Position numbers and translations under genes: made by a program | Notes under the pieces: generated by a model | Seen by the model: the letters and a program-made list of their open reading frames with translations, nothing else | The model's database searches: none | Told to the model about the DNA's origin: nothing | NCBI GenBank assembly: GCA_004524535.1 | Contig: SDNY01000024.1 | Coordinates: forward strand, 1-37,695 | Direction: 5' to 3' | Source: Promethearchaeota archaeon | GTDB taxonomy: Archaea > Asgardarchaeota > Lokiarchaeia > Sigyniarchaeales > SOKP01 | Length of the DNA: 37,695 nt | Shown: one piece after another, positions 8,772-33,345 of the stretch | Position numbering within the stretch: position 1 is the first letter of the stretch | How the letters are laid out: every line of letters begins with the position of its first letter

Positions 8772-9200
8772 TCAGTGTTTTAACACTATTTCAAGTTCTG
8801 TGTTAAAATCTTCATACTGATCTACATATACCAAACTCTTTCTATTATATTTGTCTTTGAATTTTTTTAAGACATCATCTAGTATTGGTTTAATTTTCTT
8901 AGTAATGATTTTTTCAGTTTTCTTTCTATTTTTAATATTGAATATGGCGTATGCAATAAGATCCTCATAATATTCCTCTTCAATGGATTCGATCCGAGTT
9001 ATACTAAAGAATGTGATGTGGTTTGTCGCTTCAATATAGGATAATTCTTCTGAAAATAAACTTTTACTGAAAGAATTTATAGCAGAAAAAAAAGCACCTT
9101 TTTTAAAATCTTGTATTTCACTTATTTCTTCCTGAAAATTTTTTCTGTAAAGAACAAATCCTCGACAAACAATACCTATCTCTTCTATTAACAAAAACAC
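8772..9200 (-). CDS. Hypothetical protein, possible longin/roadblock-like fold
   Basis: Pattern IGIVCRGFVLY...GAFFSAINSFSKSLF.EELSYIE followed by beta strands and a C-terminal helix. GGAGG SD upstream; the true start may be the TTG at 9194. Confidence 0.6.
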   Translation of the reverse strand: MFLLIEEIGIVCRGFVLYRKNFQEEISEIQDFKKGAFFSAINSFSKSLFSEELSYIEATNHITFFSITRIESIEEEYYEDLIAYAIFNIKNRKKTEKIITKKIKPILDDVLKKFKDKYNRKSLVYVDQYEDFNTELEIVLKH

Positions 9201-9253
9201 CCCTCCTCATTATTAGAAAAATATAAATCTTGAATAATAAGAAGTTACTTCGT

Positions 9254-9326
9254 TATATAAATCCATAAGGGAGGATTTTTGACTAGTTCATTGATATATA
9301 AATCCATAAGGAGTGATTTTTGACTA
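9254..9326. repeat. Two-copy 32-bp direct repeat, 41-bp period
   Basis: TATATAAATCCATAAGGGAGGATTTTTGACTA (9254-9285) versus TATATAAATCCATAAGGAGTGATTTTTGACTA (9295-9326). Confidence 0.9.
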
Positions 9327-9387
9327 AAGTATTTTCAATCCCGTATGATATTGATATAGGTAAAATAAAAACTTCTTTAAGAAGGAT

Positions 9388-9765
9388 TTATATTAAAACT
9401 GCGTTTAAAACTCCGTGTTGACCTGGACGGCTAGTAATCTTGGCTTTACCAAGTTCAGTTTCAACTACAGCTCCCCGTGTAAGAATGTGTCTTCGATTCA
9501 AATCTAACGATGCCTCGTTGCTTTCAAATTTTAATATTTTCACTTTCGAAGTTTTATTGGTATTAAGGTCAGTCACATTTACAAAAACAGAAGAAAACAA
9601 CTTTAACTTACTATTTCCTCCCATTACTCGTTGCTCTTTCCTTCGCTCAGTCCCAATTTCAGTGTTGATTGGAGGCCTTTCTAATTCTCTTTTTCTTTTT
9701 TTACGGAAATGTTTATATTTCTTTCCAGTGTATCTTCTTTTACTTCTCCGCTGACTTCTTGCCAT
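9388..9765 (-). CDS. rps8e: 30S ribosomal protein eS8 (S8e)
   Basis: RSKRRYTG, RKRELER, RVMGGN.K.KL, ILTRGAVVETELGKAKITSRPGQHGVLNAVL. Confidence 0.97.
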   Translation of the reverse strand: MARSQRRSKRRYTGKKYKHFRKKRKRELERPPINTEIGTERRKEQRVMGGNSKLKLFSSVFVNVTDLNTNKTSKVKILKFESNEASLDLNRRHILTRGAVVETELGKAKITSRPGQHGVLNAVLI

Positions 9766-9961
9766 AAGAAAATAGACCGTTCTAATTCTAATTCAATATT
9801 ATTGCTAATAAACAATATCTTTAAAGTTTTTTCATATTCAATATTCAATAAATTAATTTTAAACCAAAAAAAATAATTTAAAAAGTTTTTAAATGTAATT
9901 ATAATAATGGTATAAAAATTAGACTTATAATGAAAACAACTAGATTTTTTTAATCTTTAAA

Positions 9962-13372: not shown

Positions 13373-14017
13373 ATGATGGAAAATAATTTAAAAAAAAATT
13401 CTAGCAATTTAGATGAAGATAACTTAAAAAAAGTTCTATCAGGCACTACAACCGTAGGGTTAATTGTAAAAGAAGGGGTTGTAATTGGGACAGAGTCTCA
13501 AGCGACAGCTGGTTATACGGTTGCAACGAAGCAGGCGCAAAAATTATTTGAAATCAATAAGTATACTGCCGCTACTATATCTGGTGGTGTTGCCGATTGC
13601 CAATATGTAATTAATCAAATACAAGCATTATCCCGATTGAAACAAGTAGAGGAGGGGCAAAGTCCTGAACCTAAATATGTAGCAAATACAACAAGAAACA
13701 TACTCTTTTCAGGACGGTCTTATTTTCTCTCGCTGATGATTGTAGGCGGGTATTCTCTTGACGAGAAGAAGGGTGTGCTTTACGGAATAGATTTATTAGG
13801 CACTCTTTTTGAAGAAGATAAATATATCTCTTTTGGCTCCGGTTCTCCTTTTTCTTTGGGCGTATTAGAAGCAGATTGGAAGAAAGAAATGTCTCTATCT
13901 GAAGGGATAGATTTAATAAAGACCGCCATTTCGGCGTCAAGGGAACGCGATGCCGCCTCAGGATTTAAGATACAAATATGTACCATAGACAAAGATGGAT
14001 TTAAACAAATTCAATAA
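13373..14017 (+). CDS. psmB: 20S proteasome beta subunit
   Basis: Propeptide followed by G-TTTVG (catalytic Thr), KLFEIN, SGGVADCQ, GSGSPF, RDAASG. Confidence 0.96.
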   Translation: MMENNLKKNSSNLDEDNLKKVLSGTTTVGLIVKEGVVIGTESQATAGYTVATKQAQKLFEINKYTAATISGGVADCQYVINQIQALSRLKQVEEGQSPEPKYVANTTRNILFSGRSYFLSLMIVGGYSLDEKKGVLYGIDLLGTLFEEDKYISFGSGSPFSLGVLEADWKKEMSLSEGIDLIKTAISASRERDAASGFKIQICTIDKDGFKQIQ

Positions 14018-14036: not shown

Positions 14037-14513
14037 CTACTCTTTCTTTATTTCTACGAGAATTTGGTAAAATTCTTTATTAAAGTAAATAAATCCGTTT
14101 AGATCGTAATTTCCAGCACTCATAATTGTCCAAATTAAGTTTTTAAAAAGCTTAAATTCATTTAAATGTTCCATGTTATCCGTATCTACACCACTTGGAT
14201 AGGAACCAGCTGGATGGGAATGAAAAATGCTAATTAGCCGTTTATTATATTTTTCCGCAGCCGTTTTATATATTTCATTCAATTCTTCTATATTATCTAT
14301 TAAAAACGCTACAGTGGACTTATTGGTAGATTCAATACATTCAAACTTTTGCCCTAAATAATGATATTGAAATCCATCTTCTACTTTTTTCTCATTAATT
14401 TCACCAAAAATTAGACCACAGGCTTCGTAAGGACTGGCATTTTTCACACATGTAGTTAATTTCTTAAAAATCTCATCATCTATGATGAATTTAATATCTT
14501 CCAATAATTTCAT
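14037..14513 (-). CDS. JAB1/MPN/Mov34 (JAMM) metalloprotease
   Basis: EACGL...FHSHPAGSYPSGVD, an intact E..HxH..S..D JAMM motif. Confidence 0.9.
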   Translation of the reverse strand: MKLLEDIKFIIDDEIFKKLTTCVKNASPYEACGLIFGEINEKKVEDGFQYHYLGQKFECIESTNKSTVAFLIDNIEELNEIYKTAAEKYNKRLISIFHSHPAGSYPSGVDTDNMEHLNEFKLFKNLIWTIMSAGNYDLNGFIYFNKEFYQILVEIKKE

Positions 14514-14535: not shown

Positions 14536-15216
14536 TTAAAATAATGTTAGTGCAGCATTAACTGCGGCTAACCTTGCCCTTTCAAAATTTTCCCCTAATC
14601 CAATAATTACTACATCGTTAGGTTCTAATTTTGAATCTAATTTATTGATTTCTCCTTTAAAATACTCATAAACCTTTTCGTTAACGATTGAATCTGCCCG
14701 TTTTGTATTGATATCATAACCAGATGGAAAAACTAATTGTTTCCCATCATAAACAAGACATGTTGCTCCAAGACCACCAACTTTTATAGCAGCATCTCTC
14801 TGCTCTATACCGTTAGTCAATTTATCACCATAGTTCTTGACTTGACAGAAGCATACTTTATTATTTTCCATATCGATAATCGTTTCTTGTAAAATTGAAA
14901 GATCACCCTCTTTGATAAAAGGGATTATTTGTTTTATCTTCTCCAAGAATATTAACCCTGCTTTAGTCAAAACGTGCCCCTTCCTTATATTTTCATCTAA
15001 AACCGAAATAAAATTAATAATTTTATTCAATCTTTTAATTAGGGATTTGGCGGTTCCCGAACCAATTAATAATTCCTTCTCAAGACGATATCTACCAATT
15101 CCATCTCGATTTTCTCCAAATATAAATATTGCTAAAATTGCGTGAACAATCTCAAAGGAAGGTTTTATAGTTTCACTTTTAAATAGCTCTTCTAGTTCTT
15201 CAAGGATTTTAGACAT
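14536..15216 (-). CDS. DUF4443-type protein with N-terminal winged helix
   Basis: IGRYRLEKELLIGSGTAKSLIKRL...GHVLTKAG (wHTH) and GIEQRDAAIKVGGLGA motif. Confidence 0.75.
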   Translation of the reverse strand: MSKILEELEELFKSETIKPSFEIVHAILAIFIFGENRDGIGRYRLEKELLIGSGTAKSLIKRLNKIINFISVLDENIRKGHVLTKAGLIFLEKIKQIIPFIKEGDLSILQETIIDMENNKVCFCQVKNYGDKLTNGIEQRDAAIKVGGLGATCLVYDGKQLVFPSGYDINTKRADSIVNEKVYEYFKGEINKLDSKLEPNDVVIIGLGENFERARLAAVNAALTLF

Positions 15217-17743: not shown

Positions 17744-18826
17744 ATGATTTCACCTATTAGTTGGATAAATGGATTTAGCGCTTTAGCGCTAGTTTCCGCT
17801 TCTTTTATCTTTGCATTTTATTTCGTGTATATTTATTGGAAGACAAAAAATAATATTTTACTCAATGGTGCTATTTTAGGTATTGCTTGTGCATTTGGTT
17901 GGATGGGAATTACATTGTCATTTTTATCTGTTGTAATATATGGATATAATCTGCCTGGGCTCAAATTATCTGTAAATATACTTTCCTATTCTACAATGCC
18001 CATTGGGTCTATGGCAATCTTAAATATAGCATGGGAGATGTTATTGCCTCCTAAACATAAAAAAAAAGTATTGATGGCAATAGGGATATTTAGTATTTTC
18101 TATTATATAGTATTATTTATGACATTTAATAGCGCAGTAGTATGTCCTGATGTCCCACCTGGAGAAATCTACGATGATTGGCTTTCATCTGAGGAACTCC
18201 CTTATTATTTAATATATGTTTTGATTTCAGGTATTACAATAATCTTTGCAATCGGTATATTAAGATTTTTTAAAGTTGTAATAGGTGATTTGCGAAAGAG
18301 AGCAATTTGGATTATTATTGCTACTCCAATAATGGGTAGTTGCATCTTGCTTGACACGGTGATTATTACAGATGCCATGTTTCAAGATCTTTTATTTATT
18401 GTTCGATTCCTAATGATTGTATCACTTTTTTGTACATACAAAGGTTTTAAACCACCTGAAGAAAAAATCATCGATTCTATTAAAGAAGATCGCGTGGATG
18501 ATGTACGAAGATCAGCAATCGAGAGAATGTTTGCCTCTAGACCTGAGAAGATTACCGAAGAGGAAATAAAGTTTTATAAAGAAAAAACAATTTGTTTAGT
18601 ATGCAGGAAAGAGGAAACTGGTTTTATCAATCTATTTATATGCCCAGAATGTAAGGCACTTTACTGCGAAAAATGCGCTCGAGCGTTAATTAAATTAGAG
18701 AACGCATGTTGGGCGTGCAACGAGGCAATCGACAAGTCAAAACCAGTAAAACTGCCAGAGAAAGAGGAAGAGAAAGTTATAGTAGAAGAAAAGAAGACCA
18801 AAAAAAAACCCACAAAGATAAAATAA
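17744..18826 (+). CDS. Seven-transmembrane protein with C-terminal C8 RING-like zinc finger
   Basis: Seven hydrophobic segments in aa 1-235, then CLVC-x12-CPEC-x4-CEKC-x10-CWAC (18593-18718) and a Lys/Glu-rich tail. Confidence 0.85.
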   Translation: MISPISWINGFSALALVSASFIFAFYFVYIYWKTKNNILLNGAILGIACAFGWMGITLSFLSVVIYGYNLPGLKLSVNILSYSTMPIGSMAILNIAWEMLLPPKHKKKVLMAIGIFSIFYYIVLFMTFNSAVVCPDVPPGEIYDDWLSSEELPYYLIYVLISGITIIFAIGILRFFKVVIGDLRKRAIWIIIATPIMGSCILLDTVIITDAMFQDLLFIVRFLMIVSLFCTYKGFKPPEEKIIDSIKEDRVDDVRRSAIERMFASRPEKITEEEIKFYKEKTICLVCRKEETGFINLFICPECKALYCEKCARALIKLENACWACNEAIDKSKPVKLPEKEEEKVIVEEKKTKKKPTKIK

Positions 18827-18902: not shown

Positions 18903-19277
18903 TTATGTTGGAATATCTTTTAATTTTCCCTTTTTTAATAATTCTATCAAATTTTTAATATCTTGTTTGGGCGATCCCTTCATTGGGCTCTCAATTGCCT
19001 CCTTTGTTTTCCGAGGATGAAAATGATGTGGTCGACTAGATACATTCCAACGATCATCATAATTATCAAATCTACATCTATCTAATTCTAGTTTTGAAAA
19101 TATAATTGAGTAGCTATATTCTTCATAATCATTATATACAATGTAAAGATGGATTCCATCATGAAAAATAATATGAAGTTGTTTATCATCTACATTTATA
19201 GAGATAGTTTTTATTTCATTTGATAAATTTTGCTCGAAAATATCTCTAGCGATGTTTAATTTCGCGATTGCTTTCAT
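18903..19277 (-). CDS. DUF6516/TumE-like putative toxin
   Basis: YSY...RFDN...W..VSSRPHHFH motif. The ATG at 19277 overlaps the upstream stop (TAATG) and is preferred over 19292. Confidence 0.75.
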   Translation of the reverse strand: MKAIAKLNIARDIFEQNLSNEIKTISINVDDKQLHIIFHDGIHLYIVYNDYEEYSYSIIFSKLELDRCRFDNYDDRWNVSSRPHHFHPRKTKEAIESPMKGSPKQDIKNLIELLKKGKLKDIPT

Positions 19278-19528
19278 TATTGGCTTAACCAAATAGCTTT
19301 TCGATGCTCTAATCTATCAATTTCATCTTCAAGATTTTTTAAAATTATTGCCTCCTCTTCTGCCTCAGAAATAGTTCCATTTTTAGCATCTTCTAAGAAC
19401 TTGTTAGAAGATGTGTATCCCCACTTTTTTAAGATTTTTTCAATTTTTTTTCTTAAATGATTTAATTTGAAATCTACTAATTGAGCCAAATATTCCTTTT
19501 CTATTTTTACTTGAGTCATATCCATCAT
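19277..19528 (-). CDS. Small helical protein, putative antitoxin
   Basis: 83 aa, IEKILKKWGYTSSNKFLEDAKNG pattern, translationally coupled to the DUF6516-like gene. Confidence 0.65.
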   Translation of the reverse strand: MMDMTQVKIEKEYLAQLVDFKLNHLRKKIEKILKKWGYTSSNKFLEDAKNGTISEAEEEAIILKNLEDEIDRLEHRKAIWLSQ

Positions 19529-19821: not shown

Positions 19822-21525
19822 ATGAGTCGTAATAATCCTTATAAACCCGAAAAAATCAAACTTGCCCTCCACAAGAAAATAATTTGGTTAATTTCAATGA
19901 TCGGATGTGGTATTTACGCTATAATTGTGATTTTTATCTTATTATCCAATCAAATACCTGCATCTGTGAAATTAATTACGATCATTAGCTACATGATAAT
20001 CGGACCATTAACCATCTACATATTATGGATATTATTTTATATTTGGAAAACAAAAAAATATCCTCCAAGTGAAAAATTAGTCAGTGATCGTAAACAATAC
20101 TTAATAATGCTTTTCCTTATTGGGATTTGCGTAGTTAATTTCGCAGCATACTGGAATTCGGGAATCATGGATCTTTGGCTTCTTGCCGCAAATGGGGTTT
20201 ATTTCGTTACAGGAGATGAAATTTTGGCTTCAGTATACTATTACGTTGGAGCTTATGGAATTACACCCGCACTTGGGGAAGAGTTTTTGAAATCTCTTCC
20301 CAGTATCTTAGCATTTTTCATTGTATTGCAGAGGAACAGTAATTCTGAACAAAAAGGAAAGGGCATGCTTGGAAACGAATTAAATGGATTTTTGTTTGGT
20401 TTGATAATAGGAATAACATTTGAGATATTAGAACTCATATCTTATCTTGGATTTACAGTATTATATGGTGGAAATGCCTTTGATATTTATATTCAGGTAA
20501 CAATTAGAGATTGGGCTCCAATTCACATATTAGGTGGTTCAATTGGAGGATTTGCAGCAGGGAGAGCAGAAAGACTTCGATTTGAGCGAGGAGAAGAGAA
20601 TCACCCCATGGGAAGTCAATTTATAAAATTTTTAAAACGATTTACCCCTCTCTGGCTCATCCCCGTTTCTATACACTTTCTATGGAATAGTTCTTCAATC
20701 TGGATTTTACTTTACGTTTATACAATTAACGCTCAAGGCACAAACCTAGATCTAATCCTTCAAATTATTGTATTTGTAGTATTAGGTTCTTTGTCTTTTG
20801 CTTTATTGTTATTCTTTTTAAGGCGAGCAAATAAAATTGCTAAAAAAACTTTTCGTTGCCCTGAAACAGGTATTATTGTTGTTAATGAAGATATTGTATG
20901 TACTTCTTTCAATGATAGAATCCCTTCTGAAGATATCCAATTCTCACAAATAAAGCCTGCCAATTTTTGTACTAATTGTGGCGAGCCTGTTAAGATTAAT
21001 GCCCGCTTTTGTATTAAATGTGGATTTAATATAGAGCAATTCAATTCAACTCCAACTACTTTATCACCAAATCCTACAAAACTCTATGATGGGTTTACAA
21101 TAGCTCTCTTTATTATCTCTTTAATAGCGACTCTAATTTTTCTCGTATTTGAGATAATTTTGTTTTTTTCAAATCTATTAATATATGGACCTGAAATATT
21201 ATTTATCCTAATTTTTCAGATTAGTATCAGCTTATTAACTTTAGGATTAATGATATACGCTGTCATACGTCTTTTAATGTTAATAAATGATTATGATGGA
21301 AGAAAGAGTATCTTGTATTGGTTGATCTTAATTTTTAATGTAATCGGAATGTTTGGAATATTATTTATAATTGGTATAGTTTACTTGTTGTATGCACCAT
21401 TTTATTATTATAGTACATTAGGAATAGGTATTCCATTTTTAATAGGAGCGGTAATTCTTCTCATTTTTATGATATTCGTAATATTAAAGGGACAACAAAC
21501 ATTCCAATACCAACGATTCATTTAA
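19822..21525 (+). CDS. PrsW-family intramembrane protease with internal zinc ribbon and extra C-terminal TM bundle
   Basis: P..EEFLK, FEILE, PIH and IHFLWN motifs; FCTNCG...FCIKCG; four further TM helices. Confidence 0.85.
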   Translation: MSRNNPYKPEKIKLALHKKIIWLISMIGCGIYAIIVIFILLSNQIPASVKLITIISYMIIGPLTIYILWILFYIWKTKKYPPSEKLVSDRKQYLIMLFLIGICVVNFAAYWNSGIMDLWLLAANGVYFVTGDEILASVYYYVGAYGITPALGEEFLKSLPSILAFFIVLQRNSNSEQKGKGMLGNELNGFLFGLIIGITFEILELISYLGFTVLYGGNAFDIYIQVTIRDWAPIHILGGSIGGFAAGRAERLRFERGEENHPMGSQFIKFLKRFTPLWLIPVSIHFLWNSSSIWILLYVYTINAQGTNLDLILQIIVFVVLGSLSFALLLFFLRRANKIAKKTFRCPETGIIVVNEDIVCTSFNDRIPSEDIQFSQIKPANFCTNCGEPVKINARFCIKCGFNIEQFNSTPTTLSPNPTKLYDGFTIALFIISLIATLIFLVFEIILFFSNLLIYGPEILFILIFQISISLLTLGLMIYAVIRLLMLINDYDGRKSILYWLILIFNVIGMFGILFIIGIVYLLYAPFYYYSTLGIGIPFLIGAVILLIFMIFVILKGQQTFQYQRFI

Positions 21526-28917: not shown

Positions 28918-31900
28918 TTAAATCTTAACTTTTTCTTCCTTGCCCTTTTTGAAAATGAAATAAAAAATGATTACTAAGACAAACAAAATGGGAATTGCAA
29001 AAGAGACTGGATTCCCACCAGAAAATATAAAAATATAATAAGTTATTGCTAATAAAGACGCAAAAAAACCAATAATTGGACCGTATAAACTAGTAAAGCT
29101 TTTAAATCGTTTCCAAAACATATAAACTCGGAAGTTCATCTTCTTAAAAACTTCTAACTCGTCCTCATCTAATTTATCTAAAACATCAGGATTTTCATAA
29201 TATAATCCTAAGCGTGGATCATATTTGCCTTTTAAATCGCCACTGCTTATAAGGTAAATCAAATGTTCTTGGAGATTTTGCTTTTTTATTTTGAGCTCAT
29301 TGGCTAAAAAACCAACAGTGAGGTACTCATTAGCCACAGCTTTTATGGCCATTGTTACATATGATTTAATTATTAATTGCTCTAAGCTTTTAATTTTTTC
29401 AGTTAATGTTTCATAAAAATTTTTGAGAAATCTGTCAAAGTCTTTTAAAAGATATTTACTTTTTGTTTTAAAATCTTTGGAATCTTTATTAAATTCCTTT
29501 GTCAAATTCTTTATGTTCTTTTTAATTAATTTTATATGAGTAGAAATATTACTTGCTCGGTCATTTATCTTATAGTAGGCCCTCTTAAATTCTTGTGCAT
29601 CTATGTCCTCTTCAATTTTTATCTGGAGTGTTCCTAGCATTTGGGTTATACGCATCTTTTGTTCATTAATAAAGTTGGTTAATTTTCCACGGAAAACTTC
29701 CTCTTTTAAAATAATTATTTCAGTGCTAATTTTTTCTTTTTTATTTTCATAATCTTTTAAAAACTCACTTTTTTTCTTCACAAAATATTCACTAAGTTCA
29801 AGTCCCATTTTATTTGAATCGTTAATATTGCTTAATGACGATTTTAAGTCTTCTTCAATTCTTTGCTGAGTTTGATTAAATTTATTTGCCAGTTTTCTCC
29901 ATTCATTCTCAAAACTTTCCTTTATTTTAATATACGATTCTCCATGTGATTTCTCAATATCTTTGGAAATTTTTGAATTTTTTGCCTTCAACTCTGTTTC
30001 TAAATTGTTAAATTCCTGAGTTATGAAATTTTGCTTATTAATGAACAATTCAAGGTTGATTCTTATTTTATTTATCGCTAATTTGTTATTTTCCAAAACA
30101 GATTCAAAATAGTTTTTAGTATCAATAAATTCCATTCGCGTTTGCTCGATTTGGAGTTCTTTGACTTTTTGTTTAAATTGCTCTCGGACAGTTTCTTCAA
30201 AATTCAACTCGTTTATTCGATTTTGAAGTTCTAATATATTTACGCTTAATGTTCTTTTTCTTATGCTGGAGTCATATAAGGCAAGTATTTTCCCTATTCT
30301 CTCTCGTACTAATTTTAATAATTTATTGTCAATATAATTCTTTAATTCCTTGTTTTTATAATAATGATCTGTATATAATAAGACACATTTTTCGGTATCA
30401 TAAAGTTTTGCATTTAATTTAGAAATCTCGATCATCTCTTTTATCCTAGACATTAGAACGTTACATTTTAAGCCAAGTTCCTTTTTTAATTCGATAACTT
30501 TTATTGTATTCGTTTTTCTCTCGTTTGATATAGAATTAATTTTTTCTGTAATAACATTATTTATATACTCCTCTTTCAATATATCAACTTCATGATTAAA
30601 ATATTCTTTAAAATTGTTCCATTGAATAATAGTAACATTGGATTTTTCTTCAAATTTTTCAATCAAATCATTACATTTTTTTAATTTTTTTAAATATAAT
30701 CTATCAACCTCATTAAACTGATTTCGAATATCATCAAATCTATTATTTATATCTTTAACTCCTAACTTATCACTTGGTTGATCCAGACCATCTTTATATT
30801 TTTTCAATAAATCCTTGAATTTAGAGATCTCTTGCGAAACAAAATCATCAAAATCCTCTATTTTTGCCCTGTTTCTTTCCTCTACTACTTTTTTTTTAAG
30901 AGATTTGACTTGTTGTGCTATTTCTGTAAGTAAATTTTCCTCTAAATCCTCTAACCCCTCATTTAATTGTTTATATAGCAAAGATAATCTTTGTTTGGAT
31001 TTTATTTCTTTATTGATGATCTCTTGAAGCTCTTTAATTTCATTTGTTTTAGTTTTTAATAAATTATTTGCTTCAATTTTAATGACCTCGAATGCTTCTT
31101 TAAATTGACTTTCTTTTGCTTTAATTTTGGCTTTTTCAGTTATAGTCTGAACTTCTTGAATAATTGTACTTTTCAGATTATTGATCTTTTTCACATTCTC
31201 CCTGAAGAAGGTAAAACCATTAGAATAATAATCAAAGATGTCATTAAATCCCTTTTTTACTTCAATCCAATGATTTATTACCTCATTTCGATTCTGAATA
31301 ATCTCCTTTTCTTCTGTAATTATTTTTCGAGAAATTTCATAAAATTTTTTATCAAATTCGTTTACATTCTTTCTAATCTTTTCAAAATCTTGAATAACAA
31401 CTGATAATCCTGTATCTGAATATTTTTCACTAACTTCTCTTAAATTATTTCTAAATTTATCTAAATCTCTATCTATCGATTCTCTAAATATGGTAATTTT
31501 ATTTTCTAAATTCTCAATTGTGTTATTGAACTTTCTTATATCTTCCTTTTCTGAAATTTTTTTCAACAGAAACAATTCTGTGTCCTTCAGTTCTTTACTT
31601 AAAATGGAATATAATTCGTTCCAGTGGGTAATTTCTGATTCAAAAACAGTTTGAATATTAGTATAGTATAAATCTTCATTAAATGAATTTTCAATATTTT
31701 CGTTTAAGAAATCGGCTTCCATTAATGCGTCTCTTAGAATGAATTTTAGCCGTTCTTTGGCGAGATCAATTTCATTTAGAATTAAATAGGATTCGATTTC
31801 TTCTTTTATTTGAGAGGATACATTCTTTAATTTTAAAATCATGTTAAAGATATTATTTTTAATTTCCTTTAATTTCTCTTTTTCAGAAAATAATCTATCA

Positions 31901-33345
31901 GGATTTATTTTAGTGTCAGAAACAATTATTTTTTCTAAAAGGAAATCTAATTCAAACCGATTTTTTGCGGTCTTACCCTTAAAAAAGTTCCTTTCGATCA
32001 TATTATTTATTAATGGAAAAATGTCTTCCTTTAATTTAAAAGATTCATTATGATATTTTGATTTAAATTTTTTAAGATTCTTTTTTTTGAAAGAAACTAT
32101 ACTATTTTTTTTGATTTTATCATAAAAGTCTAAGGCAAAATCTTTTAATCCGGGACTTAAATCACGAATATAATTATTAAATTCTAATTGATTATCCAAA
32201 ATACGTATATTAAAAGTGTAATATTCATTAATGTAAGAAATTACCTCTTCAATTCCATGTGTCAATCCAAATGATGTTTTAATTTGATTTGAATCAACAT
32301 ATTCTTCCTGCTCTAATTGTTTGAATAAGACTCTCTCAATGGTGTTAATGAATTTTTTCCAAATTATCGATAATATTATTATTAATTTTGAGAGTTCCAT
32401 CATTTTAATAAGGTTTCGATTGGAATCCTCACTTAATATTTCATTTAGTTTAGAGTTTATAAAAGAATAGATTCCAATAGGGTTATAATCTATTAGCCAA
32501 GAATATATATCGAGAACATAGACTAACCAAAATGTTGTATTTATTGTTCCATCAATTTTTTTAAAACTAAAACCGCCATTTTCTTTTTGAAATTGATGAA
32601 GATATTGAAGAGATTTATCATTAACATTAGAATCAAGATCTAAAAGCTTAAAACATAACAACTTGAAAACCAACGATGGATCTCGCTTTTTATCAGTTAA
32701 ATGGGACTGAAACGAGTCTTTACTTAATCTTGTATCTATTCCCAAAAGCCTTAAAATCTCCAATGCGAAATATAGTGTTCTTGCCGATGATGTCTTTTTG
32801 CAAATTTCGCAATCTTCAAAAAAACAGTGTAAAAATCTATCACCTTTATTGTGAGGGAGGACAAAGTTTTTAATTTCTCGGGCGATCTGTTTTTGTCCCT
32901 TTGAAGCAAGAAATTCCTTCAAAACCCCTAATAATTTCAAGCTTGCTAAAGCAAAATAAGTGGACCAAATATCCGGTTCTTTTTGATTTGAATAGGGAGA
33001 AAATTTAAATCCTAATTTATCACTCCCTTTTGTAAATTTACATTTCTTAATATAATCATATAATTCTTTCTTCTTTTCTTTCTTATGATCTTTCAAATAC
33101 TTTCTTAATAAGAGGAAATAGTAAACATTTTCCAGGTTGAGGGGTCCTTCATTTAGTATGTTTTCTTTAATATTTTGATAAAATTTTAAGACTTCATCAT
33201 AATTACTTATATAAAATGGTCCAATCTCCCTACTTTTCACTGAAAAAAAGGATTTAAACGGTTCTTTCTTAAATATCGTAAGATAAGGGTATAATGATTT
33301 TCCTTCAACCAAGTCTTCCTTAAAAATAAAACTCTCTTTTATCAC
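28918..33345 (-). CDS. Giant coiled-coil protein with N-terminal prenyltransferase/squalene-cyclase-like repeats, PCI-like winged helices and two C-terminal TM helices
   Basis: GFKFSP...PDIWSTYFALASLKLLG and FQKENGGFSF...TTFW repeats; E/K/L/I-rich heptads; LTVGFLANELKI...LIYLISSGDLKGKYD; hydrophobic hairpin at the C-terminus. Confidence 0.8.
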   Translation of the reverse strand: MIKESFIFKEDLVEGKSLYPYLTIFKKEPFKSFFSVKSREIGPFYISNYDEVLKFYQNIKENILNEGPLNLENVYYFLLLRKYLKDHKKEKKKELYDYIKKCKFTKGSDKLGFKFSPYSNQKEPDIWSTYFALASLKLLGVLKEFLASKGQKQIAREIKNFVLPHNKGDRFLHCFFEDCEICKKTSSARTLYFALEILRLLGIDTRLSKDSFQSHLTDKKRDPSLVFKLLCFKLLDLDSNVNDKSLQYLHQFQKENGGFSFKKIDGTINTTFWLVYVLDIYSWLIDYNPIGIYSFINSKLNEILSEDSNRNLIKMMELSKLIIILSIIWKKFINTIERVLFKQLEQEEYVDSNQIKTSFGLTHGIEEVISYINEYYTFNIRILDNQLEFNNYIRDLSPGLKDFALDFYDKIKKNSIVSFKKKNLKKFKSKYHNESFKLKEDIFPLINNMIERNFFKGKTAKNRFELDFLLEKIIVSDTKINPDRLFSEKEKLKEIKNNIFNMILKLKNVSSQIKEEIESYLILNEIDLAKERLKFILRDALMEADFLNENIENSFNEDLYYTNIQTVFESEITHWNELYSILSKELKDTELFLLKKISEKEDIRKFNNTIENLENKITIFRESIDRDLDKFRNNLREVSEKYSDTGLSVVIQDFEKIRKNVNEFDKKFYEISRKIITEEKEIIQNRNEVINHWIEVKKGFNDIFDYYSNGFTFFRENVKKINNLKSTIIQEVQTITEKAKIKAKESQFKEAFEVIKIEANNLLKTKTNEIKELQEIINKEIKSKQRLSLLYKQLNEGLEDLEENLLTEIAQQVKSLKKKVVEERNRAKIEDFDDFVSQEISKFKDLLKKYKDGLDQPSDKLGVKDINNRFDDIRNQFNEVDRLYLKKLKKCNDLIEKFEEKSNVTIIQWNNFKEYFNHEVDILKEEYINNVITEKINSISNERKTNTIKVIELKKELGLKCNVLMSRIKEMIEISKLNAKLYDTEKCVLLYTDHYYKNKELKNYIDNKLLKLVRERIGKILALYDSSIRKRTLSVNILELQNRINELNFEETVREQFKQKVKELQIEQTRMEFIDTKNYFESVLENNKLAINKIRINLELFINKQNFITQEFNNLETELKAKNSKISKDIEKSHGESYIKIKESFENEWRKLANKFNQTQQRIEEDLKSSLSNINDSNKMGLELSEYFVKKKSEFLKDYENKKEKISTEIIILKEEVFRGKLTNFINEQKMRITQMLGTLQIKIEEDIDAQEFKRAYYKINDRASNISTHIKLIKKNIKNLTKEFNKDSKDFKTKSKYLLKDFDRFLKNFYETLTEKIKSLEQLIIKSYVTMAIKAVANEYLTVGFLANELKIKKQNLQEHLIYLISSGDLKGKYDPRLGLYYENPDVLDKLDEDELEVFKKMNFRVYMFWKRFKSFTSLYGPIIGFFASLLAITYYIFIFSGGNPVSFAIPILFVLVIIFYFIFKKGKEEKVKI

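Follow-up and report, generated by a model that had tools for sequence, protein, structure and literature searches.

A predicted membrane-embedded RING-type E3 ligase in an Asgard archaeon and the association of its family with ubiquitin-like, E2, E1, and JAB genes

The DNA analyzed here, referred to as the window, is the 37,695-nucleotide stretch at positions 1 to 37,695 of the forward strand of contig SDNY01000024.1 from a Promethearchaeota archaeon (assembly GCA_004524535.1). Positions 17744–18826 hold an intact open reading frame (ORF) of 360 codons that starts with ATG and has no in-frame start further upstream in the ORF list. The encoded protein has a predicted seven-transmembrane (7TM) domain followed by an eight-cysteine finger, is 78% identical over its full length to the relative P0002, and is called the 7TM-RING protein below. 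It is probably a polytopic, membrane-embedded RING-type E3 ligase of the Asgard ubiquitin (Ub) system. Its parts are listed with their sources. A2 is the whole-protein alignment of 42 sequences of differing architectures, A3 is the alignment of 10 sequences of the RING module only, A5 is the alignment of 36 7TM domains of the family, AF2 is AlphaFold2, and pLDDT is its predicted local distance difference test score.

17744–18826, forward strand: coding sequence of the 360-residue 7TM-RING protein, stop codon included (ORF list).
17753–18448, forward strand: 7TM domain, residues 4–235, predicted N-terminus out and C-terminus in (AF2, pLDDT mostly above 90; charge distribution).
Transmembrane (TM) helices by residue (AF2 model): TM1 4–34, TM2 37–66, TM3 73–100, TM4 103–131, TM5 152–178, TM6 182–207, TM7 211–235.
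18137–18196, forward strand: acidic outer loop between TM4 and TM5, residues 132–151, with a beta hairpin and conserved D144-D145-W146 (model and alignment A5).
18449–18538, forward strand: low-confidence cytoplasmic linker, residues 236–265 (pLDDT below 50 at residues 243–254).
18539–18586, forward strand: conserved acidic helix preceding the RING, residues 266–281, RP..ITEEE...KE.K (both models; alignments A2 and A3).
18593–18718, forward strand: C4C4 RING-type zinc finger, residues 284–325, with Cys at 284, 287, 300, 303, 308, 311, 322, and 325 (regular expression, conservation, and fold matches).
18728–18751, forward strand: conserved tail motif I-D-x-S-K-P-V-K, residues 329–336, directly after the RING (alignments A2 and A3).
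18752–18823, forward strand: Lys/Glu-rich C-terminal tail, residues 337–360, poorly conserved (sequence; low pLDDT at the end of the model).

The membrane topology was derived from hydropathy, loop charge, and a structural model. A 19-residue hydropathy scan identified six clear hydrophobic segments and a weaker seventh (about residues 75–99) that was below threshold and was placed by eye. The AF2 model of the full protein, built from a 77-sequence alignment, has a mean pLDDT of 87.4 and contains seven membrane-length helices, a short beta hairpin in the 132–151 loop, and a disordered linker after TM7 that leads to a small C-terminal domain. The basic loops named in the initial annotation of this DNA are present as KTK (residues 32–34), KHKKK (residues 104–108), and RKR (residues 184–186), and the acidic loop that it placed after TM4 is DVPPGEIYDDWLSSEE. 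The inner loops after TM1, TM3, and TM5 contain 2, 4, and 5 Lys plus Arg residues compared to 1, 0, and 0 in the outer loops, and the outer loop between TM4 and TM5 contains 6 Asp plus Glu residues. This charge distribution gives an N-out, C-in topology that puts the Cys domain on the cytoplasmic side, and the seven helices with a cytoplasmic RING claimed earlier agree with both the model and the loop charges. The model predicts with good confidence an outside N-terminus, a compact bundle of seven TM helices, and 120 cytoplasmic residues at the C-terminus. The cytoplasm is where the Ub system is, and this location of the RING supports the assignment as an E3.

The Cys domain was examined by sequence comparison. 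The spacing C-x2-C-x12-C-x2-C-x4-C-x2-C-x10-C-x2-C read in the initial annotation was matched exactly by a regular expression at residues 284–325. The eight Cys, Y307, and W323 are invariant in A2, and L285, L315, E319, N320, D330, K333, and P334 are near-invariant in the same 42 sequences. D330, K333, and P334 are invariant in A3, as is V286. The Pfam matches of the window protein are all below threshold (best C1_2, E 0.0036; FYVE, 0.36; zf-RING_2, 0.5), and an NCBIfam scan of the protein returned no family. Weak Pfam matches in 77 relatives include B-box-like (44), zf-RING_2 (44), DZR (43), Prok-RING_1 (22), and zf-C3HC4_3 (20) models, and the best curated RING match among these relatives is to zf-C3HC4_3 (E 1.5e-5). 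A phmmer search of the PDB with the single sequence returned RNF4 (1.5e-5, helped by the tandem construct) and MYLIP/IDOL (0.0012), and nearly all of the rest were RING E3s. The whole-protein profile from A2 retrieved only TM-composition noise from the PDB and was replaced by the domain-only alignment A3, which matched RNF4 (7e-4), RBBP6 (0.0017), TRIM37 (0.0025), and p44 (1z60, 0.0087) with the Cys ligands in register in all four. The conserved acidic helix at residues 266–281 aligns with the helix that precedes the MYLIP RING.

Structural comparison gives the same assignment. A separate AF2 model of residues 250–345 has a pLDDT of 82, and the PDB matches listed by Foldseek are overwhelmingly RING domains of E3 ligases. 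The top match is the HRD1 zinc finger (6a3z, E 0.018); none reached E ≤ 1e-3, as expected for a domain of about 50 residues. The model superposes on RING domains with root-mean-square deviations (rmsd) of 1.4–2.1 Å over 46–50 residues, for example RNF12 (6w9d_B, 1.4 Å over 46 columns), RNF165 (1.5 Å over 47), and RNF24 and EL5 (1.8–1.9 Å over 49), and RNF38, RNF4, and RNF13 are also among the RING matches. VIA-align was applied to the top 1000 Foldseek chains, and the 50 matches listed are all RING or U-box domains with Z scores of 4.2–5.2, including RNF165 (5ulk_C, Z 5.2, rmsd 1.8 Å over 49 residues). The Cys domain is thus predicted to adopt a cross-brace RING-type fold, the outcome that the initial annotation expected from AlphaFold and Foldseek. 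Two sequential zinc ribbons or an iron-sulfur site, the alternatives that it named, are not what the predictions show. DZR and DZR_2 are matched weakly in 43 and 28 of the 77 relatives (best E 0.0069 and 0.011), and no zinc-ribbon structure is among the 50 VIA-align matches listed. An iron-sulfur reading is rejected: the Cys are not spaced as in ferredoxins, and sequence and fold searches alike retrieve zinc RINGs.

Residues expected to matter for E2 recognition were located on the finger. The RING positions that contact E2s in c-Cbl/UbcH7 and related complexes, which we take to be the second residue after Cys1, the fourth after Cys6, and the first after Cys7, correspond to V286, L315, and W323. 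All three are hydrophobic and invariant or nearly so, which would fit an E2-contacting surface. A C4C4 RING can be an active E3, as in CNOT4. The I-D-x-S-K-P-V-K tail might be a non-RING element that helps to position ubiquitin, or it might be a dimer interface; taken with the flanking helix, it is reminiscent of dimeric RINGs such as MYLIP. Co-folding of the RING module (A3) with the intact host UQ_con E2 (C24) and two zinc ions, carried out without controls, gave a score of 0.00 and no verdict.

Gene context is the strongest new evidence for an E3. Related loci were selected with the RING-module alignment A3 rather than the 7TM domain, and 6 kb of context was fetched. A scan of one genome per species gave 119 relatives, and 77 loci were kept. 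Locus L023 has this gene order, with TM-RING denoting a protein with TM segments and the RING module.

L023:3945–4991, forward strand: TM-RING protein.
L023:5308–6291, forward strand: TM-RING protein.
L023:6442–6708, forward strand: Ub-like protein.
L023, following on the reverse strand: E2, E1, JAB, and a 307-residue protein.
L023:10322–11395, forward strand: third TM-RING protein.

The Ub-like gene of L023 encodes 88 residues, ends with GG plus four residues, and matches ubiquitin in the PDB over residues 8–84. The E2 matches UQ_con above the cutoff (E 4.8e-12, 46 bits), the E1 matches ThiF (1e-47), and the JAB match is 1.3e-10. The third TM-RING protein is a full-length homolog of the window protein (tblastn 2e-32, residues 5–339), and P0042, which is of this type, aligns with 98% of the window protein (E 3e-36). 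A Ub-like gene of about 88 codons with GG near its end is found in 16 of the 77 loci; these represent 15 distinct places because L024 and L044 overlap. E2 and E1 genes lie beside it in 13 places, which are 13 genomes of 44 isolates as counted by hand from the titles, and JAB is also present in 12 of these 13, with one locus cut by the contig end. In 12 of the 15 places, the Ub-like gene is preceded on its own strand, at a distance of 23–380 nt, by the end of an ORF with the exact Cys pattern, and 7 of these 12 ORFs match the hidden Markov model (HMM) of the window-type 7TM domain. In L028 and L082, a RING match precedes the Ub-like gene by about 110 and 470 nt, respectively, in ORFs without the exact regular expression. 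The Ub-like places come from metagenome-assembled genomes (MAGs) labeled Promethearchaeota, Hodarchaeota, and Hermodarchaeota, and their E1s are 66–100% identical to the L023 E1. These data associate TM-RING relatives with a Ub-like/E2/E1/JAB operon at the level of the family; the window copy itself is not operon-linked. Beside the operon and TM-RING array, L023:1001–3294 and 8881–9804 encode two Ras-family GTPases and the 307-residue P-loop-like protein. The GTPases are about 350 residues long, each with an N-terminal extension of about 180 residues, and copies of the 307-residue protein recur in L055 and L068, up to three in tandem.

The host genome carries Ub, E1, E2, and JAB genes, in agreement with the earlier statement that Asgard archaea encode ubiquitin systems. 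The host Ub operon on contig C123 consists of JAB, E2 in two ORFs, E1, and Ub. A 690-residue protein with a C-terminal zf-RING_2 match and a proteasome beta subunit are encoded beside it, and a divergent multi-TM RING paralog (C123:23868–25061) adjoins a proteasome beta gene and lies 4.4 kb from the operon. The E2 at C123:16739–17295 (reverse strand; L019:6740–7296) is split into 85- and 94-residue ORFs in different frames that cover UQ_con positions 1–73 and 80–138; a frameshift, a misassembly, or a truly split gene could account for this. A second host operon (C181:969–6819) contains a Ub-like gene (85 residues, ending GGF), an operon-type E2 (C181:1304–1813), E1, JAB, and a gene for a protein of the 307-residue type. 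About 2.6 kb including a 220-residue ORF separates its E2 and E1 genes. In the window, proteasome beta and Prok-JAB genes lie 3–4 kb upstream of the 7TM-RING gene, which is weak Ub-system context.

Searches with the 7TM-RING protein reveal a large and modular family. A word-based search returned 76 related proteins, and an exhaustive search recovered 843 cluster representatives (50% identity) at E ≤ 1e-3, so that the architecture is not a chance feature. The NCBI names of relatives are 'hypothetical protein', 'B-box zinc finger protein', and 'PHD finger domain-containing protein'; the label PF26037.1 on P0006, which we take to be the host C106 paralog, was not returned by a local Pfam scan of P0006. 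The closest relatives (61–75% identity) include many that consist of the 7TM domain alone (237–246 residues). The same RING module is found on proteins of about 400 residues with a different multi-TM domain, on TPR proteins of about 600 residues (P0074–P0076), on soluble proteins, and as stand-alone forms of 92–112 residues. The host has four 7TM-RING genes of the window type (C73, C106, C142, and C135) and five 7TM paralogs of 233–246 residues without a RING (C90:7549–8289, reverse strand; C107:28708–29436, forward strand; C109; C87; and C110). The C90 protein is 74% identical to the window 7TM domain, which is higher than any RING-bearing paralog, and C106 has the RING module most similar to that of the window protein (86% over its length). 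This suggests recent domain shuffling or loss. Eight host ORFs carry the exact module pattern, and one of them (C81, 512 residues) lacks TM segments. Their RING modules are 47–86% identical to that of the window protein, whereas the N-terminal parts are 21–43% identical, the pattern of a variable N-terminus on a constant RING that the initial annotation had proposed to look for. A ninth regular-expression match in the host (C158:69–2030) is an unrelated N-terminal eight-Cys motif, CRFC...CQDC, that is shared by the proteins at L067:60–2051 and L092:1741–3894; the three proteins are 653–717 residues long. The RING-module HMM from A3 matches 82 of the 84 pattern-bearing ORFs, and the two exceptions are taken to be those of L067 and L092.

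The distribution of the module is concentrated near the host. The titles of the 77 loci read Promethearchaeota or Promethearchaeia (56), Hodarchaeota (5), Hermodarchaeota (5), Thorarchaeota (1), and 'uncultured archaeon' (10). Of 81 genomes sampled evenly across the GTDB phylum, 7 gave a match to the module at E ≤ 1e-5: the host, 5 of 9 further members of its family, and a genome of another family with a weak match (6.9e-6). The search of the remaining 74 gave none at this threshold. The NCBI phylum labels on some of the MAGs and the GTDB-based sample do not obviously agree. At E ≤ 1e-10, the module is present in 36 of 60 genomes and 9 of 13 genera of the host GTDB family, with 1–21 matches per positive genome. 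Together with the eight ORFs of the host, these counts bear out the earlier statement that such proteins are numerous in this lineage. A viral or mobile origin was considered and set aside: IMG/VR yielded one 14-residue match only.

The relationships of the 7TM domain were explored by fold and profile comparison. Foldseek gave marginal matches to G protein-coupled receptors (GPCRs; E 7e-4 to 4e-3, TM-score 0.2–0.57, rmsd 6–11 Å, 9–15% identity). In an exhaustive VIA search of 48,161 representative chains, the top 50 matches are only GPCRs, microbial rhodopsins, and designed GPCR-like folds, with Z scores of 12.5–14.6 and rmsd of 3.6–5.2 Å over 197–232 of about 240 residues. Z scores up to about 13 are common for helical bundles, and the likeness is therefore taken as one of arrangement and not of homology. 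TM7 (residues 211–235) has R221 in mid-helix, where a rhodopsin carries its retinal-binding Lys, and its sole Lys, K232, is at the cytoplasmic end; the domain is therefore not a rhodopsin. The Pfam 7tm families gave no match at E ≤ 1 in the window protein or the 77 relatives. A language-model search, used as a lead only, returned neighbor clusters with HisKA_7TM in 10–29% of their members. The HisKA_7TM family (PF16927, Pfam threshold 28.6 bits) matched nothing in the host genome at E ≤ 1 and was weakly matched by 4 of the 77 relatives (best E 1.4e-4). Alignment A4 was built from nine true HisKA_7TM domains found elsewhere in the phylum, where 7 of the 81 genomes have one at E ≤ 1e-3. Comparison of A5 with A4 by hhalign gave a probability of 81.7, below the usual 90–95% level, with E 1.1e-5 over 211 collinear columns at about 14% identity, and the controls (one reversed and ten block-shuffled A4 alignments) gave 0.5–8.7 over 26–58 columns. 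Pfam scans of six true HisKA_7TM proteins found PAS and HATPase domains in two (one also with HisKA) and PAS repeats running off the locus in one; the other three have no known signaling output. The 7TM domain is likely, but not settled, to be a distant relative of the HisKA_7TM sensor-kinase input module. Of the folds named in the initial annotation, the GPCR/rhodopsin-like arrangement held up, a distant HisKA_7TM relationship is suggested, and membership of a rhodopsin or GPCR family is not supported. N9, W53, G55, P86, G88, Y120, Y121, G181, D204, and R221 are invariant in A5, and D144-D145-W146 is near-invariant. The invariant residues favor a functional bundle over a passive anchor, and a distant relationship to HisKA_7TM would make a sensing or recognition module likelier than a mere anchor.

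A membrane RING E3 is the best reading of these data because the finger is predicted to be cytoplasmic, has a RING fold with conserved hydrophobic residues at the presumed E2-contact positions, occurs as a constant module on many N-termini, and in relatives is encoded directly before a Ub-like gene of a Ub-like/E2/E1/deubiquitinase operon. The RING would recruit the ubiquitin-charged UQ_con-type E2 of the host and promote transfer of the Ub-like protein to lysines on proteins drawn in by the 7TM domain. The 7TM domain would act as a sensing or recognition module, and the targets could be membrane proteins recognized in the lipid bilayer or partners recruited in response to a signal. The HisKA_7TM link favors ligand sensing by the 7TM domain, and the fact that this RING module is also joined to TPR and other N-termini of a recognition type favors substrate recognition. 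The family may have radiated by joining one constant RING module to many N-terminal modules, which is how eukaryotic E3 families diversify their substrates.

Several observations weigh against this assignment. No Pfam RING model reaches its gathering score in the window protein (zf-RING_2 scores 11 bits compared to a cutoff of 27.3), and the commonest weak Pfam match in the 77 relatives is C1_2 (63). All of the Foldseek E-values for the Cys domain exceed 0.01, and VIA Z scores of 4–5 are modest. The residue after Cys7 is usually Pro in RINGs and is Trp (W323) here, and the residue after the last Cys is often a 'linchpin' Arg or Lys and is an Asn here that varies in the family. The window copy adjoins no Ub, E1, or E2 gene, full linkage is found in only 13 of the 77 loci (64 lack it within the 6 kb fetched), and the linked places are not independent because related genomes share synteny by descent. 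The host C181 operon has no RING gene in the 968 nt upstream of it, up to the contig start. Five host 7TM paralogs lack a RING, which indicates that the 7TM domain has a RING-independent function. The main rival explanation holds that the finger is binuclear and RING-like but has no catalytic role, comparable to those of TFIIH p44, B-box, PHD, FYVE, and C1 domains, and that it tethers a cytoplasmic partner, a lipid, or a nucleic acid to the membrane, which would make the protein a receptor or scaffold without ligase activity. It accounts for the mixed, sub-threshold Pfam matches (C1_2, ANCHR-like B-box, FYVE, DZR, zf-RING), the absence of the usual Pro and basic residue, the agreement with the p44 C-terminal finger at all eight Cys and in structure (8ebt_E, Z 4.4), and the B-box and PHD names that NCBI submitters gave to relatives. 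However, E3 RINGs outrank p44, PHD, and FYVE domains in both the sequence and the fold searches, the three canonical E2-contact positions are hydrophobic, and a mere adaptor would not readily account for a gene position conserved immediately before the Ub-like gene in an operon. We regard a non-catalytic finger as unlikely, although it deserves to be taken seriously.

A special case of the membrane E3 assignment is a receptor-type, ligand-gated enzyme in which a signal from outside or within the membrane acts on the 7TM domain and alters RING availability or dimerization, a one-component signaling system as put forward in the initial annotation. The hhalign match to Asgard HisKA_7TM (81.7 over 211 columns compared to 0.5–8.7 for the controls), the PF16927 matches in 4 of the 77 relatives, the HisKA_7TM-containing neighbor clusters (a lead only), and the PAS, HisKA, and HATPase outputs of true HisKA_7TM proteins all point in this direction, as do the GPCR/rhodopsin-like arrangement and the conserved polar D204, R221, and D144-D145-W146 inside the bundle or at its outer end. 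On the other hand, PF16927 matches nothing in the host genome at E ≤ 1, the 7TM Z scores of 12.5–14.6 are within the common helical-bundle arrangement, HisKA_7TM itself has no known function, and no ligand or second messenger partner is known. Close relatives have a conserved outer face, which is unlike a family that diversifies for many ligands. Ligand gating is a tentative proposal that we would doubt at present. Another proposal takes the linked Ub-like/E2/E1/JAB operon as an antiviral, Bil- or CBASS-like conflict conjugation system in which the TM-RING proteins are sensors or effectors instead of housekeeping E3s. Tandem TM-RING arrays (three in L020; three within 8 kb in L022, L023, and L024), a patchy copy number of 0–21 per genome within one family, and a TumE-like toxin gene just downstream of the window gene are in its favor. 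The E1 and JAB match the PADLOC CBASS E1-E2 and JAB models (4.4e-18 and 6.3e-7), but at a generic superfamily level, and the PADLOC models match neither the TM-RING proteins, the Ub-like protein, nor the E2. The E2 is of the eukaryotic UQ_con type and is above the Pfam cutoff, IMG/VR yields only the 14-residue match, and the neighbors are Ras-like GTPases and a roadblock-like GTPase, not defense genes. A conflict system is very improbable.

The predicted membrane E3 was compared with known systems. Eukaryotic polytopic RING E3s (Hrd1/synoviolin, Doa10/MARCH6, RNF13-type PA-TM-RING proteins, and Pex2/10/12) likewise have a multi-pass membrane domain followed by a cytoplasmic RING, and they share the presumed logic of bringing E2~Ub to the membrane. 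Their membrane domains are unrelated in sequence and fold to the 7TM GPCR/rhodopsin-like bundle of the window protein, which has a C4C4 finger in place of RING-H2 or RING-CH and belongs to an archaeal host without an endoplasmic reticulum (ER). TFIIH p44/Ssl1 has nearly the same Cys spacing, and 1z60_A aligns with all eight Cys (E 0.0087). However, RNF4, RBBP6, and TRIM37 score better, the p44 structural match (8ebt_E, Z 4.4, rmsd 2.9 Å over 49 residues) ranks 25 among the 50 VIA matches listed, many E3 RINGs tie with it structurally, Pfam C1_4 is matched by only 3 of the 77 relatives (E ≥ 0.38), and the N-terminus is 7TM and not vWA plus Ssl1-like. The p44/Ssl1-type label of the initial annotation thus describes the C4C4 spacing well, but not a specific relationship, with p44 at rank 5 in the profile search. 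HisKA_7TM proteins also begin with a seven-TM region of about 225 residues followed by a cytoplasmic output, which is PAS-HisKA-HATPase instead of RING. GPCRs and microbial rhodopsins share the seven-helix arrangement at 5–13% identity (VIA top 50). To our knowledge, the archaeal RING E3s reconstituted so far are small soluble ones only. The small RING protein srfp of Caldiarchaeum (PMC5654768) and a Helarchaeial RING E3 (bioRxiv 10.1101/2023.07.25.550441) are reported to have E3 activity in vitro within reconstituted cascades and are encoded beside Ub, E1, E2, and JAB/Rpn11, as are relatives of the window protein. Both are small and soluble and the Caldiarchaeum protein is modeled as RING-H2, which sets them apart from a C4C4 RING fused to a 7TM or other domain; the window-type module also carries its own flanking helix and tail motif.

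Membrane-embedded RING ligases ubiquitylate membrane proteins in eukaryotic ER-associated degradation and endocytic sorting. A full-text literature search, with most subscription journals and the supplementary asCOG tables (which may list the family) outside its coverage, returned no account of Asgard polytopic RING proteins. Nor is there one in the portions consulted of PMC10936438, PMC12962969, bioRxiv 10.1101/2020.10.19.343400, and PMC11354881. Relative to the literature searched, the window protein is a candidate RING E3 whose membrane architecture is new, as is the operon context of its family. A multi-copy polytopic RING family beside Ub-like, E2, E1, and deubiquitinase genes is a concrete, cloneable candidate for a membrane arm of the archaeal ubiquitin system. 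The host lineage is closely related to eukaryotes, and the question of whether ubiquitin-dependent control of membrane proteins is older than eukaryotes is made testable. The joining of a signaling-type 7TM module to a non-kinase output would be a new output class for prokaryotic membrane sensors. More speculatively, and with considerable doubt, these proteins may be prokaryotic receptor-type E3s in which a sensor-kinase-like 7TM input was rewired to a ubiquitin-ligase output, so that a membrane signal is converted into ubiquitylation of proteins in or near the membrane. In that case they would be the E3s of the compact Ub-like/E2/E1/JAB operon and functional forerunners of the membrane E3s through which eukaryotes pass ubiquitylated cargo to ESCRT or the proteasome.

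The other genes near the 7TM-RING gene in the window are listed below. A 135-residue ORF without a known family lies upstream of it, and a histone-fold gene, which marks the window as archaeal, is 1 kb upstream.

13373–14017, forward strand: proteasome beta subunit.
14037–14513, reverse strand: Prok-JAB protein.
14536–15216, reverse strand: DUF4443 protein.
18903–19292, reverse strand: 129-residue TumE-like ORF directly downstream (PF20126, E 7.5e-6).
19277–19528, reverse strand: 83-residue ORF without a family.
19822–21525, forward strand: 567-residue polytopic membrane protein.
28918–33345, reverse strand: 1475-residue ORF.

The TumE-like ORF overlaps the 83-residue ORF by 16 nt and has no PADLOC hit, and the two are possibly a toxin-antitoxin pair. 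The 567-residue protein has a central zinc ribbon (PF13240, E 5.8e-7, residues 382–402) between its two hydrophobic halves and is another membrane protein with a cytoplasmic zinc finger beside the 7TM-RING gene. The window is AT-rich, with about 24–40% GC. The only Pfam match in the 1475-residue ORF is a prenyltransferase alpha-alpha toroid near its N-terminus (E 9.8e-10).

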